From an archaeon (GTDB lineage: Archaea; Iainarchaeota; Iainarchaeia; Iainarchaeales; Iainarchaeaceae), in assembly GCA_035655435.1 (NCBI GenBank), contig DASRUN010000066.1, forward strand, positions 520 through 64,519: DNA of 64,000 nt, in the 5' to 3' direction. Within the stretch, counting starts at the first letter, position 1, and every line of letters begins with the position of its first letter. The notes under the pieces are model-generated. The model searched no databases, was not told the origin of the DNA, and saw only the letters and a list, made by a program, of their open reading frames with translations. The position numbers and the translations under genes are program-made. Below, one piece after another: positions 2,903 through 36,864 of this stretch.

Positions 2903-2977
2903 TCAAACCCCTCGGAAATGTATATATTGGAGCCAAAAACGTATATAATAGTAACTTTTTCACGAAAAAGAGTTATT

Positions 2978-3778
2978 TTAGTAGTTTTGGAGGGCTTTTT
3001 CGGCGTTTAACCGGTTCCAAATTACAAGAATTTTATTGGCATAATGGTTTCCGGTTGAATCTCCAAGGCTCTTTGCAGAACCCCTGCCCCTATTATAAGC
3101 AGCCCATCTCCTGAAAGGGGTTTGATATTCTTTGTTTGGAGGATGCTGTTTTAACCACAAAAAAGTCCTTACAATGCCCTCAATATTTTGAACCGGGTCA
3201 AACGGATCAATTATTGTTATTGGGTGCTCCGGTAAATTCTTTAGAGTTTCAATTTGAGAGGGCATTAACTGCCCAAACCCCGCATCCCCTGCTTTTCCCC
3301 TGGCATTTGGATTGTAATGGGATTCGTGTTCTATAACAGCCAAAATTTCGTGCGGGTCAACAAATTCAACACCACTTGAATTATATTTTCTGCATTCTTC
3401 CGCCACAAGAATTTTAATGTCGTGAACAAGCTCCGGCGGAACATTTCTGAGGTCAAACGCATTGGTTGTGAAGCGCACTCCATAGGCGCGGGCAAATTCC
3501 TCGCCTTTAAGCCCCGGTCTGAAAATTTTGAATTTTTGCGGAGAACGAATAACGTGAATTTTTTCCCTTTTAATTATTTCTTCCGGCTCAATTGCTTTTA
3601 ACTCGACATTGTTACGAATTGATTTTTGACCCAAATTTCCTGCAGGCATATTTGAGTTCGGCCTTAGGTTTCTTCCAACACCCAAACCCGCCAGAAATGC
3701 AGAGATTCCCGTAGCTGCTGAAGCGCCCAAAAATTGGCGCCTTGTAATTCCTGACCCTTTTGAATTTCTTTTTGGCAT
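2978..3778 (-). CDS. Tat-signal lytic transglycosylase (SLT domain) protein
   Basis: 266 aa. Twin-arginine leader SGITRRQFLGASAATGISAFLAG. Catalytic-type motif EHESHYNPNARGKAGDAGFGQLMP (E-S ... AG.G.GQLMP) as in SLT/goose-lysozyme-like transglycosylases. Confidence 0.75.
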   Translation of the reverse strand: MPKRNSKGSGITRRQFLGASAATGISAFLAGLGVGRNLRPNSNMPAGNLGQKSIRNNVELKAIEPEEIIKREKIHVIRSPQKFKIFRPGLKGEEFARAYGVRFTTNAFDLRNVPPELVHDIKILVAEECRKYNSSGVEFVDPHEILAVIEHESHYNPNARGKAGDAGFGQLMPSQIETLKNLPEHPITIIDPFDPVQNIEGIVRTFLWLKQHPPNKEYQTPFRRWAAYNRGRGSAKSLGDSTGNHYANKILVIWNRLNAEKALQNY

Positions 3779-4075: not shown

Positions 4076-4244
4076 CTTTTTTGTTTCCTACGGGAAACAA
4101 AAACCTGCACTAAAAGGAAAATGGCACTTCACACTACAGTTAGAAAACAAGGGTATGCCAACGGCTTAATACCATATATAATATTACACTACTTTTTCAC
4201 TACTTTTGGTAAAGTTTAAATATTTGTCTGGCAATATATTTGTA

Positions 4245-6499: not shown

Positions 6500-6588
6500 G
6501 CCCTCGTGGCTCAGTGGTAGAGCGGCGGTTTTGTAACCCGAAAGGGCAAACTAACCGCAGGTCGTGGGTTCAATCCCCACCGAGGGCT
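6500..6588 (+). tRNA. tRNA-Thr (TGT) with 17-nt intron
   Basis: Acceptor GCCCTCG/CGAGGGC, anticodon stem GCGGT/ACCGC, loop TTTGTA|A. Canonical 37/38 intron at 6536-6552 (ACCCGAAAGGGCAAACT, with a CCC-GAAA-GGG hairpin). Confidence 0.8.
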
Positions 6589-6680
6589 TATCTCCATGCA
6601 ATGGAGATAACTGTCGCGCCCAACAGCCGAAACTGTTGTTTTACACCAAGATATTTAAAGCAAGAAAACCTAATTTTTGC

Positions 6681-9145: not shown

Positions 9146-9263
9146 CCCTCCTTAGCTTAGTAGCTAAAGCGTCCGGCTGTAGAACGACATTACTCCTTTG
9201 GGAGAGAAAATAATCGCAAGTGCGGTTACCGGAAGACCCCCGGTGCAAATCCGGGAGGGGGGA
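9146..9263 (+). tRNA. tRNA-Tyr (GTA) with 45-nt intron
   Basis: Acceptor CCCTCCT/AGGGGGG (one G-U), D stem GCTT/AAGC, anticodon stem TCCGG/CCGGA, loop CTGTAG|A. Intron at 9183-9227. T arm CCCGG-TGCAAAT-CCGGG. Confidence 0.8.
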
Positions 9264-12515: not shown

Positions 12516-13208
12516 TTAATTGTTTCCCAAGAATTTTTTTCTTTCTTTTTTCGAAAATTTTTCAATGGCATAACGGAGCATTGTTCGGGGCATTTTTTTG
12601 GAATTTTTTTCCAAAAATTTTATCAAAACTTTTTTGTCGCGCTTGCCGATTTCGCGGAGCATCCATCCAACTGCTTTGTGGATCAGATCGTGAGTATCAT
12701 TGAGAAGAATTTCGGAAATTTTTAATGTGTCCTCAAAGGAATTATTTTTGATGAAATGGAAAGTAGTTATTATTGCCACTCTCCTTTTCCAAAGGTTTTC
12801 CGATATTGCAAATTTGTAAAGAATTTTTTTGTCGCGGTTGATTAAATACGGACCGGCAATCTTGTCGGCTACACAATCAACCAAATCCCAATTGTTAGTG
12901 TATCTTATGTTTGAAATGTAAAAATCGTAAATTTTTTTCCTTTCTTTTACTTCGGCTTTTTGGAATTTGTAAACAAGAACAAAAAGTGCAGCCATTCTTT
13001 CTTCGTGGAACTTTGATTGAAGAGATTTTGTTACTTCAGCAAGCGGAATATCAACGAATTTTTTTGCAACAGCCCTTGTTTCAGGAACTGTTACGCCAAG
13101 AAAAACATCCCCAAAACCATATTCTCCCTTTCCGGTTTTGAAGAATCTCTTGTAGACCTCAACCTTCTCCCAGGTGGCAAACTCTTTCAGCTCGCTTTGA
13201 ATGGACAT
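12516..13208 (-). CDS. DNA alkylation repair protein (AlkD-like HEAT repeat)
   Basis: YKRFFKTGKGEYGFGDVFLGVTVPETRAVAKKF is characteristic of this family. The ORF-track start at 13247 is probably too far upstream. Confidence 0.7.
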   Translation of the reverse strand: MSIQSELKEFATWEKVEVYKRFFKTGKGEYGFGDVFLGVTVPETRAVAKKFVDIPLAEVTKSLQSKFHEERMAALFVLVYKFQKAEVKERKKIYDFYISNIRYTNNWDLVDCVADKIAGPYLINRDKKILYKFAISENLWKRRVAIITTFHFIKNNSFEDTLKISEILLNDTHDLIHKAVGWMLREIGKRDKKVLIKFLEKNSKKMPRTMLRYAIEKFSKKERKKFLGNN

Positions 13209-24928: not shown

Positions 24929-25321
24929 TTAAAGCATTCTAACAACGGATTCTACAGCTCTTGCGGCAAATTCCTTTGCACGGCCATTTGCCTGCGCTTG
25001 TGTCATTCGCGGACCTGAAATTCCATAACCGACAGGCTTGTCGAATTTGAGCGAGAGCTCTGCAATTTTTTCTGCTGCAGTATAGGAAATGATTTCGTCG
25101 TGGCTTGTTTCGCCCTGGACAACTGCTCCGAGGACAATTGCACAATCAATGTCCTGGCGCGCAAGAAGCCTTTGCAATGGAAGCGGGACATCAAAGGCAC
25201 CGGTAACGTAAACAATTTCTTTCACATTCAACCCGTTTTTTTCCGCGGCCTTTTTTGCAGTTGCGAGCATCAAATCCGTAATTTCTTTATGAAAATCTGC
25301 TACAACAATGCCAAGATTCAT
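24929..25321 (-). CDS. ribH: 6,7-dimethyl-8-ribityllumazine synthase (archaeal short form)
   Basis: 130 aa. MNLGIVVADFHKEIT...GAVVQGETSHDEII...GISGPRMT aligns with archaeal RibH. Confidence 0.8.
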   Translation of the reverse strand: MNLGIVVADFHKEITDLMLATAKKAAEKNGLNVKEIVYVTGAFDVPLPLQRLLARQDIDCAIVLGAVVQGETSHDEIISYTAAEKIAELSLKFDKPVGYGISGPRMTQAQANGRAKEFAARAVESVVRML

Positions 25322-25335
25322 TCAAATTCCCCCGT

Positions 25336-25387
25336 TCTCTTTCTTTTTGGTGCAGATTTTTCTTTCTCTAGGAAAGAGAAAGAAAAA
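25336..25387. repeat. three-arm homopyrimidine/homopurine mirror plus inverted repeat
   Basis: TCTCTTTCTTTTT (25336-48), GGTGCAGA, TTTTTCTTTCTCT (25357-69), AGGAA, AGAGAAAGAAAAA (25375-87). All three arms are perfect 13-mers. Confidence 0.7.
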
Positions 25388-25427
25388 GGTGCGTGAAAAT
25401 CCGCTACAACAATTCCTAAATTCATTT

Positions 25428-25922
25428 TCAAAGCCTCACTTTAGGTGCATTTTCTTTTCCCTGTCTTTCTCCGGAGCCGGCTCTTTTATCCAACTCTTCC
25501 TGTGCAAAGAGCATCCAAAGCAAATTCAATGCATGCTTTGAAACTCTATTGCGCATTATTGATGCAAGTTCTCCCGCGGTTTTCCCCTCATCCTCGTGGA
25601 CGAATGCCTCGAGCACAATTTTTTTTGTCATCAATTGTATTTGGCCGATTCCGAGAGAAGCTTCATGCGAACATTGCTTATCAATGGGCATTGAACCAGG
25701 CATCCCCAAAGCCAATCCGGCTCTACACCCTTCATCAAGGAGATTGAGCATTGCGAGAGGGATGTCTTTTACTCCTGGAACTGTTCTTTTTTTTATTTCA
25801 ATTTCCCAATTTTTTTCTTTGGCATTTTTTTCCATTGTTTCAATTGCTATTTTCCCCATATCTCCCCGCGAGAACATTGTGTCGATAACGGCAATTTTCG
25901 TTTTGAGTTTTTTTTCACTCAT
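25428..25922 (-). CDS. ribC: archaeal-type riboflavin synthase
   Basis: KIAVIDTMFSRGDMGKIAIE matches the archaeal RibC N-terminus. Start taken at the second Met (the ORF track starts at 25937). Confidence 0.75.
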   Translation of the reverse strand: MSEKKLKTKIAVIDTMFSRGDMGKIAIETMEKNAKEKNWEIEIKKRTVPGVKDIPLAMLNLLDEGCRAGLALGMPGSMPIDKQCSHEASLGIGQIQLMTKKIVLEAFVHEDEGKTAGELASIMRNRVSKHALNLLWMLFAQEELDKRAGSGERQGKENAPKVRL

Positions 25923-28148: not shown

Positions 28149-29613
28149 TTTGGTTGACGGTTGGGCGGTAATAGATTCTTATTTTAGGGACAAAAACATT
28201 GCCCAAATGGAAATAGATTCGTTCAACCAGTTTGTGGAAAAAAAACTCGATGAAATAATTGCGGAAAACAAGGAAGTTGTTCCGAAAATCGAGGAAGTAA
28301 AAGTTCAATTTGACAAAATTTCCGTTATAAAACCGCGCATAGTGGAAGCTGACGGCTCTCCTAGAAACGAATTTTTCCCAATGGAAGCAAGATTGAGAAA
28401 TAGAACTTATTCAAGCCCGATTTTTTTGACAATGAAACTTTTGAGAAGAGATGTTGAACAGGATAAAAAACAAACTTACATCGGAGAGCTTCCTGTAATG
28501 TTGAAAAGCAATTTGTGCTGGTTGAACGGTAAAACAAACGAAGAACTTATTGAAATGGGCGAAGATCATCTTGATTTCGGCGGATATTTCATTGTAAACG
28601 GTTCTGAAAAAGCGTTGATGACACAGGAAGTTCTTGCATCCGACAGGGTTATTGTTTCTGAACAATCCGATAGAATTGTCGCGGAAGTTATTTCAACAAG
28701 GGGAGCTTTCAAAGGAAGGGTTAGAATTCTTAGAACTCCTGACGGAATTTTGAATGTTACATTTCCTGCTTCCCCTAGAAAATTAAAATTATTTGTTTTG
28801 CTCAAAGCACTTGGATTGAGAAGCCCGCAAACAATTAAGGAAGCTTTCATTGAACAACAGGAAATTCAAAATGATGTTTTGATTAACATTGAAAATCTTT
28901 TGGTTAAGAGCGAGAAGGAAGCACTTGATAAAATCGGAAAGTTTGTTGCACCCGGACAAGTGGAAGAATACAGGTTGAGAAGAGCCCAGGAAGTTATTGA
29001 TGCATTCTTATTGCCGCACATTGGACAGGATCAAAAAGACAGATTGGCAAAAGCATATTATTTGGTTATGATGGCAACCAAGGCAATTGAAAAAGCCTAC
29101 AAATTGAGAGAAGAAGATGACAAAGATCATTACGCAAACAAGAGATTGGAATTGTCGGGAAAATTAATGGAACACTTGTTCAGATATTCTTTCAAATATT
29201 TCATCAAGGATTTGAAATTCCAAATTGACAGAACAGTTACAAGGAGAAGAAAACTTAACATTTCAACAATTGTAAGACCGGGCGCGGTTTCGGAAAGAAT
29301 CAGATTTGCAATGAGCACAGGAAATTGGATTGGACGCGCTACAGGAGTTTCAAAATTCATGGATCGAGTAAATTATTTATCTCCATTAACGGATTTGAGA
29401 AAAGTAAAAAGCCCATTGGATAAAAACAGGGAACTTTATGAAGCAAGAGATGTTCACGGAACGCATTGGGGAAGATTGTGCGCAATAGAAACTCCTGACG
29501 GACCGCAATGTGGGTTGGTAAAAAATCTTGCATTGATGGCAGAGGTTACGGTTGAAACGGATGAAGAGCCGATTGAAAAATTGTTGAAGGATATGGGCGT
29601 GAAATTAAGATGA
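28138..29613 (+). CDS. rpoB2: RNA polymerase subunit B'' (N-terminal half of split RpoB)
   Basis: 491 aa. IDSFNQFV..., ANKRLELSGKLM, and ends after GLVKNLALMAEV. TTG start overlaps the rpoH stop. Confidence 0.9.
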   Translation: MWFNLVDGWAVIDSYFRDKNIAQMEIDSFNQFVEKKLDEIIAENKEVVPKIEEVKVQFDKISVIKPRIVEADGSPRNEFFPMEARLRNRTYSSPIFLTMKLLRRDVEQDKKQTYIGELPVMLKSNLCWLNGKTNEELIEMGEDHLDFGGYFIVNGSEKALMTQEVLASDRVIVSEQSDRIVAEVISTRGAFKGRVRILRTPDGILNVTFPASPRKLKLFVLLKALGLRSPQTIKEAFIEQQEIQNDVLINIENLLVKSEKEALDKIGKFVAPGQVEEYRLRRAQEVIDAFLLPHIGQDQKDRLAKAYYLVMMATKAIEKAYKLREEDDKDHYANKRLELSGKLMEHLFRYSFKYFIKDLKFQIDRTVTRRRKLNISTIVRPGAVSERIRFAMSTGNWIGRATGVSKFMDRVNYLSPLTDLRKVKSPLDKNRELYEARDVHGTHWGRLCAIETPDGPQCGLVKNLALMAEVTVETDEEPIEKLLKDMGVKLR

Positions 29614-29624
29614 TTGCAAACCAA

Positions 29625-29727
29625 ATGAGTGGGACCGTAGGTCGCACAGGTCTGACGGCGAACCAAGTGCTGCCGAAGGCGCACGCTCCCTTCCGAGGAG
29701 CACGCTCGGACGCGGAGGTGTTCCCGA
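29625..29727 (+). promoter_or_regulatory. GC-rich structured leader cassette, copy A (before rpoB')
   Basis: GTGGGACC-GTA-GGTCGCAC hairpin, CACAGGTCTGACGGCG, GCTCC/GGAGC hairpin, GAGCAC word. Ends GGAGGTG + 7 nt + ATG. See findings. Confidence 0.55.
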
Positions 29728-31551
29728 ATGGTTAAGGAAGCAAAGCAGGCAAAGGTTTACATTAACGGAAGACTTATCGGATTCCATCCCGATCCCATGA
29801 AATTGACAAGGGAAATTATTGCGCGCAGAAGAGAGTCAAAAATCTCCGAGCAGGCAAATGTTGCTTTCCACGAAGATACAAATGAAGTTTACATTAACAC
29901 AGACGCAGGAAGGGTTCAGAGACCGTTGCTTGTTGTTGAGAACGGAAAATTAAAAATTACCGATGAAATTGTAAAGCAGGTTAAGGAAGTTAAAAAAACT
30001 TGGCAGGATCTTATCCGCGAGGGATATGTTGAATACCTCGATGCGGAAGAAGAGGAAAATGCTTTCATTGCTTCAAACGAAAAAGAACTCGGAAAAGAGC
30101 ACACGCATTTGGAAATTGATTCCGCAACAATTTTGAGTGTAATAAGTTCCATGATTCCTTATCTCGAACACAACATGGCGGGAAAAGCGCTTCACGGAGC
30201 AAAAATGTTCAAGCAGGCACAGGGTTTCGGAGCAAGCAATTTTAATCTTAGAAGCGATACTGAAGGATATCTTTTGCATTACCCACAAAAATCTTTGGTG
30301 AAAACAAAAACAATGCACATGGTTGGATTGAATCAGAGACCGCAAATTCAGAATCTTGTTGTTGCAATAATGCCGTATTACGGCTTCAATATTTTGGATG
30401 CAGTAATTCTCAATAGAGGCGCTGTGGAAAGAGGAATGGGAAGAAGCTCTTATTTTAGAACTTATGAAAGCGCGGAAAACAGGTATCCTGGCGGACAGAT
30501 AGATAAATTTGAAATTCCGACAGAAGAAACCGTCGGATTTTTGGGAGAAGGATTTTACAAAAAGCTTGGTCATGACGGAATAATCCAGCTTGAATCCATT
30601 GTTGAAGAAAATGATGTTTTGATTGGAAGAACCTCCCCTCCAAGATTTTTGGAAGAAATCAATGAGTTCGGTGTTGTTCAGGAAAAAAGAAGGGAAACAA
30701 GCGTTACAATAAGAAAAGGCAAGGACGGTTTTGTTGACAAAATTTTTGTAACAGAATCGGAAGCCGGAAACAAGCTTGTGAAAGTTAAAGTTAGAAGCCA
30801 GAGAATTCCCGCGCTTGGAGATAAATTCAGTTCAAGGCACGGGCAGAAAGGTGTTGTTGGATTAATTGTTCCTGAGGAAGACATGCCTTTTACACCCGAT
30901 GGAATAAAACCTGATTTGATTTTGAACCCGCACTCTGTTCCTTCAAGAATGACCATTGGACACTTGCTTGAAATGCTTGCGGGAAAAGCTTCCGCAATGA
31001 AAGCAATGCAGATAGACGGAACTCCTTTTGGCGGAGTCAAACAAGCTGAACTTGAAAAAATGCTTGATGCAGCCGGATTAAGAAAAAATGCAAAAGAAGT
31101 TTTTTACGACGGTACAACAGGAAAAAGAATCCAAGGAGAAATTTTTACGGGACCGGTTGCTTATAGAAGATTGTTCCACATGACCGCGCACAAAATACAA
31201 AGCAGAGCTCGCGGACCGGTTCAGATTTTGACAAGACAGCCTACAGAAGGAAAGGAAAAAGAGGGCGGATTAAGATTTGGAGAAATGGAAGGAGAAACAT
31301 TGGTTGGACACGGAGCGGCAATGCTTTTGCAGGAAAAATTCATTGATGATTCCGATAAAGTTACAATGTGGGTTTCCGAAACCGCGGGAGTAATAGGATT
31401 TGAGGATCAAATCAGAAAAGTGAAGAGGGTTCTTGAGGCAAATGATTCGAAAATTTATCCTGTTGAAATGAGCTATGGTTTCAAATTATTGCTTGATGAA
31501 TTGAAAGCTCTTGGAGTATATCCTAAATTGATTTTGACGGACAAGGTGTAA
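29728..31551 (+). CDS. rpoB1: RNA polymerase subunit B' (C-terminal half of split RpoB)
   Basis: 607 aa. GDKFSSRHGQKGV, NPHSVPSRMTIG, and GGLRFGEMEGETLVGHGA motifs. Confidence 0.95.
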   Translation: MVKEAKQAKVYINGRLIGFHPDPMKLTREIIARRRESKISEQANVAFHEDTNEVYINTDAGRVQRPLLVVENGKLKITDEIVKQVKEVKKTWQDLIREGYVEYLDAEEEENAFIASNEKELGKEHTHLEIDSATILSVISSMIPYLEHNMAGKALHGAKMFKQAQGFGASNFNLRSDTEGYLLHYPQKSLVKTKTMHMVGLNQRPQIQNLVVAIMPYYGFNILDAVILNRGAVERGMGRSSYFRTYESAENRYPGGQIDKFEIPTEETVGFLGEGFYKKLGHDGIIQLESIVEENDVLIGRTSPPRFLEEINEFGVVQEKRRETSVTIRKGKDGFVDKIFVTESEAGNKLVKVKVRSQRIPALGDKFSSRHGQKGVVGLIVPEEDMPFTPDGIKPDLILNPHSVPSRMTIGHLLEMLAGKASAMKAMQIDGTPFGGVKQAELEKMLDAAGLRKNAKEVFYDGTTGKRIQGEIFTGPVAYRRLFHMTAHKIQSRARGPVQILTRQPTEGKEKEGGLRFGEMEGETLVGHGAAMLLQEKFIDDSDKVTMWVSETAGVIGFEDQIRKVKRVLEANDSKIYPVEMSYGFKLLLDELKALGVYPKLILTDKV

Positions 31552-31556
31552 TTGAT

Positions 31557-31653
31557 ATGATGACAAAAATGTTGAACGAAGCTAGTGTGACCGCAGGTCG
31601 TGGCATCGAGCACCGCGAAGATGGCACACCTCTCTCAGCGAGGTGTCGCTGAA
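31557..31653 (+). promoter_or_regulatory. GC-rich structured leader cassette, copy B (before rpoA')
   Basis: Begins with a duplicate of the rpoA' start (ATGATGACAAAAA). GTGTGACC-GCA-GGTCG hairpin. ACACCTC/GAGGTGT hairpin holds the SD 8 nt before ATG 31654. Confidence 0.55.
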
Positions 31654-35852: not shown

Positions 35853-36266
35853 GTGAAACTTGATTTCGAACAAATACGCTTCATAAATGCATTGGATGAA
35901 ATGACAAGGGCAACTGCAAAAGATTGCTTTATCCACGAAGGATCCATTGTTTTCTTGGTTCCTTCAAAGCACATGAGAAAAGCAATAGGAAAGAATGGAG
36001 TAACGATACAGAAAGTAAAAGAAAAACTCGGAAAACCAATAGAGCTTTTTGAGTATTATGAAAATCCGGAAGGTTTTTTCGAAAAAGCCTTTTACAAAGC
36101 GAGTGTTGAAAAAGTTGAAATAAGAAAAACAAACGACAGGACAATTGCATTTGTGAAAACAAAAAGTGATGATAAAAAAATTATTTTGAACAATTTGAGG
36201 AGACTTGATAAGATAAAAGAGCTTGCAAAAAGGAATTACAATATTGAAGAAGTTAGGATAAGGTGA
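35853..36266 (+). CDS. nusA: archaeal NusA-like KH-domain transcription factor
   Basis: 137 aa. KAIGKNGVTIQKVKEKLGK KH motif, in the conserved position before rps12. GTG start. Confidence 0.85.
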   Translation: MKLDFEQIRFINALDEMTRATAKDCFIHEGSIVFLVPSKHMRKAIGKNGVTIQKVKEKLGKPIELFEYYENPEGFFEKAFYKASVEKVEIRKTNDRTIAFVKTKSDDKKIILNNLRRLDKIKELAKRNYNIEEVRIR

Positions 36267-36292
36267 AAGATTTGTTTACAAAAGTTTTGATT

Positions 36293-36426
36293 ATGAATGA
36301 AGCTCGTGTGACCGAAGGTCGCACACCTCTGAACTCCCGGAACGCCGGGAGCACGTTGCACCGCACTTTGTGCGGGGCTAGTCCAACCGAAGGTTGGACA
36401 CCTCTGAACGCGGAGGTGTCCGCATA
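36293..36426 (+). promoter_or_regulatory. GC-rich structured leader cassette, copy C (before rps12)
   Basis: Five hairpins folded by hand: 36306-24, 36335-50, 36361-75, 36383-97, and 36396-421. The last pairs GGACACCTC with GAGGTGTCC, i.e. the SD. Confidence 0.55.
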
Positions 36427-36864
36427 ATGGCAGAAGGAGAATTTGCGGGAAGCAGTTTGCAGAAAAAAAGGAAAAAGTGGCGCAGAAAAGACAGGAAGCA
36501 CCAGAAAAAAATTAAAGCAAAAATGGGGAAAGCCAAAAGAGAAGATCTTTTGGAAGGGTCTCCGCAAGCGAAAGGAATTGTAATTGAAAAAAGAGGGGTA
36601 ACGGCAAAGCAACCTAACTCCGGAATAAGAAAATGTGTAAGAGTACAGTTGATAAAAAACGGCAAGCAGGTTACGGCTTTGGCGCCAAAAGACGGTGCAA
36701 TAAAATTTATCGATGAACATGATGAGGTTACAATAGAGGGAATCGGCGGAGCACAAGGCGGTCCAAAGGGAGATCTTTGGGGCGTTAAGTACAGGGTTAC
36801 GCATGTAAACGGAATTGCACTTGAAATGCTTAGAAAAGGAAAGAAAGAGAAAGTTAAGAGATGA
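36427..36864 (+). CDS. rps12: ribosomal protein uS12
   Basis: [36 protein letters not shown] signature. Start set at MAEGEF (the track start 36394 reads through the cassette). Confidence 0.95.

Follow-up and report, generated by a model that had tools for sequence, protein, structure and literature searches.

The PIT/BoxC/TMECO repeats of enterobacteria are built of a pyrimidine stem, a short loop, a purine stem, a second short loop, and a second purine stem, and a link between them and local genome instability has been noted (Holder et al., 2015, PMC4666352). Other small dispersed repeats that form hairpins and can land in or near coding sequences include MITE, REP, and Correia elements (PMC3184786). 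In archaea, BHB introns of tRNA genes have been proposed to be mobile (reviewed in PMC4090602). In termination-reinitiation, overlapping gene pairs are tightly coupled (Huber et al., 2019, PMC6728339), and in both Haloferax and E. coli gaps of approximately 20 nt almost abolish this coupling (Huber et al., 2023, PMC10666635).

The locus considered here belongs to an uncultivated archaeon of the Iainarchaeia/Diapherotrites, a DPANN lineage. The window, i.e., the whole 64-kb stretch of DNA that was analyzed, contains the adjacent riboflavin genes ribC and ribH (Table 1). The protein encoded before ribC resembles a winged-helix/CTP-dependent riboflavin kinase, and the 41 homologues of RibH are mostly from Diapherotrites/Iainarchaeia. 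On the minus strand, ribH begins with the 33 nt ATGAATCTTGGCATTGTTGTAGCAGATTTTCAT, which occur a second time 104 nt upstream as ATGAATTTAGGAATTGTTGTAGCGGATTTTCAC. The two copies differ at five nucleotides (TTA/CTT, GGA/GGC, GCG/GCA, and CAC/CAT, upstream codon first), and both encode the peptide MNLGIVVADFH. This is the sole short-range pair in the window (at most 400 nt apart) with at least 28 identical positions of 33, and no pair with such identity appeared in 20 dinucleotide-preserving shuffles. An identical arrangement is present in three other assemblies, L001 (ERZ4903055), L002 (SRR2090153), and L136 (ERZ4903072), so the duplication is not an assembly artefact.

The upstream copy heads a 35-codon ORF, MNLGIVVADFHAPFSFSFLEKEKSAPKRKRTGEFE, which has also been called as an ORF in L001 and L002. 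Its stop TGA (25320-25318) overlaps the ribH start ATG (25321-25319) as ATGA. At its other end, the ATG at 25425 lies 2 nt past the ribC stop TGA (25430-25428), and a TTG at 25431, in frame with the ORF, overlaps that stop. The GGGGG before ribH lies 7 nt 5' of the ribH ATG. Another TGA (25324-25322) stands in the ribH frame directly before this ATG and excludes a -1 frameshift fusion of the short ORF to ribH. A search with the 35-codon peptide among 1.8 billion representatives matched only the window's own cluster and the cluster of the relative L139. The initial annotation had described the repeated codons 1-11 with their five synonymous differences and the leader ORF ending in an ATGA overlap; both are borne out by reading of the minus strand, and the pair is also listed by a repeat search of the window. 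The feature is real and non-random, and its layout had been read correctly; it is not a regulatory leader specific to ribH.

Table 1. Positions in the window of the ribC-ribH features and of ORFs that span the GC-rich spacers of the rpo/rps operon.
Feature	Position	Strand	Basis or remark
ribC, archaeal riboflavin synthase, 164 aa	25428..25922	-	TIGR01506, 145.5 bits (cut-off 100.6); gene called in L001
Upstream copy of ribH codons 1-11	25393..25425	-	At the ancestral ribH start position, judged from relatives L084, L085, L086
Candidate relay uORF, 35 codons + TGA	25318..25425	-	Stop overlaps ribH ATG; homologous 35-codon ORF in L139 and L140
YRR element: clamp GCA (25392-25390), CC, Y arm, loop, R1, linker, R2	25335..25392	-	Architecture as in approximately 49 distinct copies
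Y arm TTTTTCTTTCTCT, pyrimidine, with T5 tract (25387-25383)	25375..25387	-
R1 arm AGAGAAAGAAAAA, reverse complement of Y	25357..25369	-	13-bp stem, 5-nt loop (25374-25370); inverted-repeat search
Linker TCTGCACC, 8 nt	25349..25356	-	TGC pairs with 5' GCA, forming the clamp
R2 arm AAAAAGAAAGAGAA, mirror image of R1	25335..25348	-	Mirror arm in 21 hairpins outside the A subfamily
Spacer CGGGGGAATTTGA with SD-like GGGGG (25333-25329)	25322..25334	-	Unpaired in the predicted fold
Downstream, functional copy of ribH codons 1-11	25289..25321	-	Minus-strand reading and repeat search
ribH, 6,7-dimethyl-8-ribityllumazine synthase, 130 aa	24929..25321	-	TIGR00114, 118.7 bits (cut-off 84.6)
Spanning ORF before rpoB'	29610-29735	+	ATGA overlap with rpoB''; ends 8 nt into rpoB'
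Spanning ORF before rpoA'	31557-31652	+	Spans a copy of the GC-rich hairpin element
Spanning ORF before rpsL	36263-36427	+	GTGA and TAATG overlaps
Spanning ORF before fusA	37507/37531-37626	+	TGA abuts fusA ATG

The approximately 56 nt between the two copies of the ribH start are a member of a dispersed repeat family, which we name YRR. Its plan is a pyrimidine arm (Y), a reverse-complementary purine arm (R1), an 8-nt linker, and a purine arm that is the mirror image of R1 (R2); in the window the core reads CC-TTTTTCTTTCTCTTT-CCT-AGAGAAAGAAAAA-TCTGCACC-AAAAAGAAAGAGAA. The core Y:R1 hairpin has a predicted free energy of -17.2 kcal/mol and is far more stable than shuffled sequences (z = -6.2); the whole leader folds no more stably than its shuffles (z = 0.14). 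Because R2 mirrors R1, the element appears capable of forming an intrastrand triplex, and all three arms of such a motif are present (Y stem TTTTTCTTTCTCT, R stem AGAGAAAGAAAAA, and mirror R stem AAAAAGAAAGAGA). In the sense strand this would be a purine-motif triplex, with R2 lying on the R1:Y duplex, and in the complementary strand a pyrimidine-motif one. A scan of the 64-kb window found one YRR copy, the ribH insert. In the trailer of tRNA-Glu (4077-4125), a hairpin similar to that of YRR, TTTTTTGTTTCC/GGGAAACAAAAA, precedes the family linker CCTGCACT and then an A-rich tract; the third arm there is not a clean mirror. Elsewhere, at 12533-12621, T-rich short hairpins (TTTTTTCGAAAA, GGAATTTTTTTCCAAAAA) form a cluster where long ORFs overlap on both strands.

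Two other views of the insert were rejected. Its origin as a tandem duplication of the first 104 nt of ribH does not agree with an identity of approximately 39% to ribH codons 12-35 (an ungapped hand count) or with the occurrence of YRR members elsewhere. Possible pairing of the linker AAAATCTGC with ribH codons 8-10 is not conserved in L139 or L015 and was treated as a chance match.

A metagenome scan for the R1-N8-R2 pattern yielded 47 stretches, most of which carry the full element, and approximately 49 distinct copies are known to us from relatives and metagenomes of related Iainarchaeia. Among these 49, 12-13 start at most 15 nt past the 3' end of a tRNA on the same strand, and seven lie inside tRNA introns at the canonical position; other copies lie in a 16S-23S rRNA spacer or between or after protein-coding genes. 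Up to three copies are found on contigs of 1.4-7 kb (L096, L089, L099, L116), and one copy holds another sequence nested in its loop. Thus, YRR shares with triplex-motif repeats a high copy number, a mostly intergenic location, and a presence that varies among relatives. Of two scans of viral contigs, one gave a single low-complexity match without a hairpin and the other, in which the hairpin was required, gave none. No description of the element or of relays made from duplicated starts was found in the literature searched.

Several tRNA genes have canonical-position introns that consist largely of YRR (L089 3560-3714, L091 10290-10442, L115 8059-8218, L116 149-357, L118 986-1159, L130 207-392). 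The L116 intron contains two copies, one of them antisense, and in L089 and L115 a second copy directly follows the same tRNA. Some copies are followed by two to four tandem units of R2 plus linker (e.g., CCTGCGCTAAAAAGAAAGAGAA), as at L089 3742-3850, at L091 9434-9540, and in L108/L106; copies of different subfamilies also stand head to tail. In the window, Rfam identifies five tRNAs, of which two are long, consistent with introns: 9146-9263 (118 nt), missed by ARAGORN in bacterial mode, and 6500-6588 (89 nt).

At least six YRR subfamilies differ in the positions of C and G, and all three arms change together. The covariation scan required only Y:R1 hairpins, not R2; a subfamily-specific mirror arm was nevertheless observed on one side of 21 hairpins outside the A subfamily, with at most one mismatch and in at least six subfamilies, and the other 17 entries of the scan are mostly reverse-strand readings of the same palindromes. 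The mirror pattern fits R2 better than a direct-repeat pattern does. The clamp covaries as well (CAAC/GTTG, CAGC/GCTG, TAAC/GTTA, TACA/TGTA). Such joint change of the three arms is what an intrastrand triple helix requires.

The history of the ribC-ribH junction can be followed in relatives. In the closest ones, L084, L085, and L086 (RibH 75-79% identical), there is no insert, and ribC and ribH overlap by 4 nt (ATGA or TTGA); therefore, the upstream copy marks the ancestral start of ribH. Its codons TTA and GGA are also nearer to those of the relatives than CTT and GGC of the downstream copy. Other lineages have the same insert at the same junction, CAC-NNA-CYTTTTT. L139/L140 retain the spacing of 104 nt, the 35-codon ORF, and the ATGA overlap, with the upstream peptide MNIAIVVADFH, the downstream peptide MNLAIVLADFH, and nine of 33 nucleotides different. 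In L015 the spacing is also 104 nt, and the upstream copy has acquired a premature TGA, with five nonsynonymous and three synonymous differences; in L083 it has lost its ATG and suffered a 7-nt deletion. L006 carries the same element in the ribC-ribH spacer with neither a duplication nor a relay ORF, and only a vestige of the insert is left in L017. Filled and empty sites are interspersed on the RibH tree. In L020 (1280-1450), a scaffold gap of 100 N lies between exact 37-nt copies of the ribH start; this relative of L015 may hide an insertion of the same kind, and it was set aside as uninformative.

The duplication may be longer than 33 nt. The spacer CGGGGGAATTTGA matches the end of ribC, GTGAGGCTTTGA (25439-25428), at eight of 12 positions, and the same relation holds in L139; the spacer is probably a diverged copy of the ribC end, and in that case the duplication may measure approximately 48 nt. 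In both the window and L139, the 12-13 nt before the real ATG are closer to the ribC end of their own genome (8/12) than to each other. Since each of these regions most resembles its own ribC end, the comparison points to a separate origin, or separate homogenization, of the approximately 48-nt duplication in the two lineages.

Selection on the upstream copy was assessed against a null model in which that copy is neutral and the downstream one accepts synonymous changes only, so that approximately 63% of the differences are expected to be nonsynonymous. None of the five differences in the window is nonsynonymous (p = 0.007). For L139, pS is 0.88 and pN is 0.09 (p ~ 0.07), and the Fisher combination of the two gives p ~ 0.004. 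In L015, pN is 0.19 and pS is 0.43, with an early stop. When the window differences are polarized with relatives, at least three of the five changes fall on the downstream copy, where only synonymous change is possible, and this weakens the argument for selection, although neutrality would predict faster rather than slower change in the upstream copy. Overall, the data are suggestive of a constraint on the upstream copy that is specific to some lineages and relaxed in L015 and L083. The initial annotation had proposed translation of this copy under selection and had named nonsynonymous or frameshift decay in relatives as evidence to the contrary. The p-value for the window and the retention of the ORF in L139 favor the proposal, and the decay is seen in two lineages, L015 and L083; the claim stands in part.

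The ribH junction is not a solitary case. Another ribH gene, in L003, has an exact 24-nt duplication of its start around a different structured insert, again with an ATGA overlap. A ribC gene in L008 has a 39-nt duplication, and the resulting 65-codon ORF ends 4 nt into ribC. In the window itself, the rpoA' start is duplicated over 13 nt around a GC-rich hairpin element. The initial annotation had likened the layout at ribH to that at rpoA' while noting that the inserts differ in sequence; the resemblance is real, and so is the difference. L101 has a YRR copy with an intact tRNA on one side and, on the other, a 22-nt repeat of the 3' end of that tRNA. Most YRR copies lack a flanking duplication (where present, its length is 13, 22, 24, 33-48, or 39 nt), so that insertion does not regularly generate one. 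Its origin would be compatible with staggered breaks followed by fill-in, with target-primed copying, or with template switching where a structure stalls replication, and surviving duplications are biased toward events that regenerated an intact essential gene.

In five of six start duplications, the ORF that begins in the upstream copy meets no stop inside the insert and ends at most 6 nt from the real ATG. Shuffled inserts in random phase produce the same bridging in 6.4-14% of cases, a null that is crude for inserts of such low complexity. Moreover, each of the five structured spacers inside the operons of the window (that of ribH and four GC-rich ones) has an ORF that leads from the stop of the preceding gene to the start of the next; multiplied together, the shuffle frequencies for these five give approximately 2e-5.

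The four copies of the GC-rich hairpin element are in the rpo/rps operon and have the core GTGTGACCGNAGGTCG ... CACACCTCT..GAGGTGTC. The peptides of the ORFs spanning them share M[NS]EA[RS]VT[EA]GR, and the last hairpin includes the downstream SD (GAGGTG) in its 3' arm. A second structured-repeat family consists of a CAACNG hairpin, GGGYGCGA, a covarying variable hairpin, and AAG. Its sites are in the window at 6589-6640, right after tRNA-Thr (6500-6588), in L003 at 2927-3000, in L008 at 1915-2066, and in L118, L097, L013, and L017. This family supplies the inserts of the L003 ribH and, as a larger member, of the L008 ribC, and it also adjoins tRNA genes.

The most economical reading is that the target duplication was kept as a relay ORF that preserves the translational coupling of ribC and ribH, since gaps of approximately 20 nt nearly abolish reinitiation and overlapping pairs are tightly coupled; we assign it a probability of roughly 0.55. 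The data show the duplication itself, that the insert belongs to a repeat family, that the ancestral site was empty, and that bridging ORFs recur; the relay function, the selection on the upstream copy, and the mode of insertion and duplication we infer. The scenario would be as follows. Ancestrally, the translation of ribH was coupled to that of ribC through a stop/start overlap. A YRR copy of approximately 56 nt would then have inserted after codon 11 of ribH, bringing with it a direct duplication of the ribH start, certain over 33 nt and probably extending over approximately 48 nt to include the SD region. The downstream copy would have restored a complete ribH that carries an SD of its own, and the upstream one would have stayed at the old initiation site beside the ribC stop, where it would now open the 35-codon ORF that runs through the hairpin and ends on the ribH ATG. 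Ribosomes finishing ribC would reinitiate on the short ORF and unwind the element as they translate it; after termination at ATGA they would reinitiate once more, on ribH. The coupling would thereby survive a 104-nt insertion that would otherwise break it. Among the observations that count against such a relay are its dispensability in L015 and L083, where the upstream copy has decayed, and the presence before ribH of an SD, GGGGG, that the predicted fold leaves unpaired, so that initiation may not need a relay.

These same observations are the natural support for a neutral scar, in which the duplication is a by-product of insertion, the ORF is open and meets the ribH start by chance, ribH uses its own accessible SD, and the upstream copy is slowly decaying. 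The L006 element, which has neither duplication nor relay ORF, agrees with it, and in any one case a bridging ORF would arise by chance with a frequency of 8-14%. However, bridging recurs, both among the start duplications and in every structured operon spacer of the window; nonsynonymous changes in the upstream copy number zero in the window and two, both conservative, in L139, despite pS of 0.6-0.9; and no indel or stop has entered the 35 codons in two lineages. We consider a neutral scar possible but on balance doubt it. Acquisition of the downstream part (the element plus ribH), or else of the upstream part, from a diverged relative by recombination, which the initial annotation had suggested as another ribH allele, would explain why all differences leave the peptide unchanged and why the same junction occurs in distant lineages. 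It is very improbable: identity to relatives is uniform across the kinase, RibC, RibH, and Ogg (70-79% for the first three), the upstream codons look ancestral, and the downstream SD region resembles the ribC end of its own genome rather than those of other filled genomes.

Recoding would require that RibH be made from the upstream ATG, with 104 nt removed as an archaeal BHB intron or bypassed by ribosomes, and both copies of the start would then be under protein-level selection. The frequent location of YRR copies inside tRNA introns, the conservation of the upstream copy at the peptide level, and the His codons that end both copies (CAC/CAT) speak for it. Yet neither a strict nor a relaxed in-register scan found a BHB motif: for in-register introns, the window, L139, L003, and L008 gave at most 10-11 scattered pairs, compared with 14 of 14 for the control tRNA-Gln intron, which was recovered. 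Programmed bypass of the T4 gene 60 type fails as well, because despite the matching His codons no stop follows the putative take-off codon and the ORF continues to ATGA; the stop in the ribH frame directly before the ATG also opposes recoding, which we regard as very improbable. Even less credible is a riboflavin- or FMN-responsive leader, i.e., an attenuator or an RbkR-controlled switch formed by the short ORF and the hairpin and specific to ribH. The initial annotation had suggested a test of whether ribH translation depends on FMN, riboflavin, or RbkR, and the position in a rib operon next to an RbkR-like gene speaks for such a leader; in addition, the Y arm could pair with R1 or, imperfectly, with R2 (82% complementarity). 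But the element is generic, occurring at tRNA genes, in introns, and in rRNA spacers; it is absent from the nearest relatives; and its whole-leader fold, as noted above, does not stand out from shuffles. In an Rfam search of the leader at gathering and permissive thresholds, no family, including FMN riboswitch and leader models, reached its gathering score, the best match being Phe_leader with 16.7 bits against a gathering score of 55.

The relay reading can be extended to a general selected device of these small archaeal genomes, in which structured inserts are kept in operons only if ribosomes can read through them, the duplicated start being the way in which YRR and the second repeat family satisfy this rule. 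YRR itself would then be a mobile element of the intrastrand-triplex type, with tRNA introns and trailers as the sites from which it spread. Its mechanism would create target duplications that are long and differ in length (22-48 nt), which would be a mode of transposition so far undescribed for archaea. We regard this extension as tentative and rather unlikely.

If the relay is true, it shows how translation can stay coupled when insertions enter compact archaeal operons that rely on stop/start overlaps, and junctions of this kind would be natural test constructs for the distance rule of termination-reinitiation. Apart from the relay, YRR is an abundant repeat family of DPANN archaea not described in the sources searched, and its presence in tRNA introns and trailers bears on the spread of archaeal tRNA introns. 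There is also a warning for annotation: small ORFs upstream of a gene that resemble its N-terminus can be insertion scars.

Among the known systems, YRR is most similar to the PIT/BoxC/TMECO repeats. Both have the stem-loop plan of a purine-motif intrastrand triplex, occur in many, mostly intergenic copies, differ in copy number from one close relative to the next, and have a connection with local rearrangement. The TMECO repeats, however, are bacterial and G/C-rich, with 9-nt stems (CCCTCNCCC...) and a 3-nt second loop, whereas YRR is archaeal and A/T-rich, with arms of 13-14 nt, an 8-nt linker, and a covarying clamp, and its sites also include tRNA trailers, tRNA introns, and, at ribH, the interior of a coding start. 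YRR does not match the TMECO consensus CCCTCNCCC-N3-6-GGGNGAGGG-N3-GGGNGAGGG, and the sequences are unrelated; thus, YRR is an analogue and not a member of that family, its likeness to triplex repeats resting on symmetry and covariation. Its assignment to MITEs was rejected: they end in terminal inverted repeats and are flanked by a short target duplication whose length is fixed, whereas in YRR the inverted repeat is internal and followed by an unpaired arm, and the duplications are absent at most copies and variable where present. Rickettsia palindromic elements reportedly insert in frame and become part of the protein (Ogata et al., 2000). Like them, YRR is a small hairpin-forming dispersed repeat that can land in or near coding sequence and be co-transcribed or translated; unlike them, the ribH insert is read as a separate ORF, and the gene was rescued by a duplication of variable length (22-48 nt). 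Similarly to archaeal BHB introns, YRR fills introns at the canonical position in at least seven tRNA genes, but the ribH copy has no BHB motif and most copies are not introns.

With respect to translation, the junctions of the locus resemble known termination-reinitiation pairs (Huber et al., 2019, PMC6728339; 2023, PMC10666635). The ribC TGA is followed by the ATG of the short ORF at +2, or overlaps its alternative start as TTGA, and the short ORF joins ribH through ATGA; ribC, the short ORF, and ribH lie on the same strand with a stop/start overlap or a gap of a few nucleotides, as coupled cistrons do. Relays of this kind are not described in these two studies: in contrast to the pairs reported there, a short non-gene ORF derived from a duplicated start would link two genes across an insertion. 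In our best reading, the ribH feature is the footprint of a triplex-capable dispersed repeat in a translationally coupled gene pair, with the duplicated start reused as a short relay ORF.
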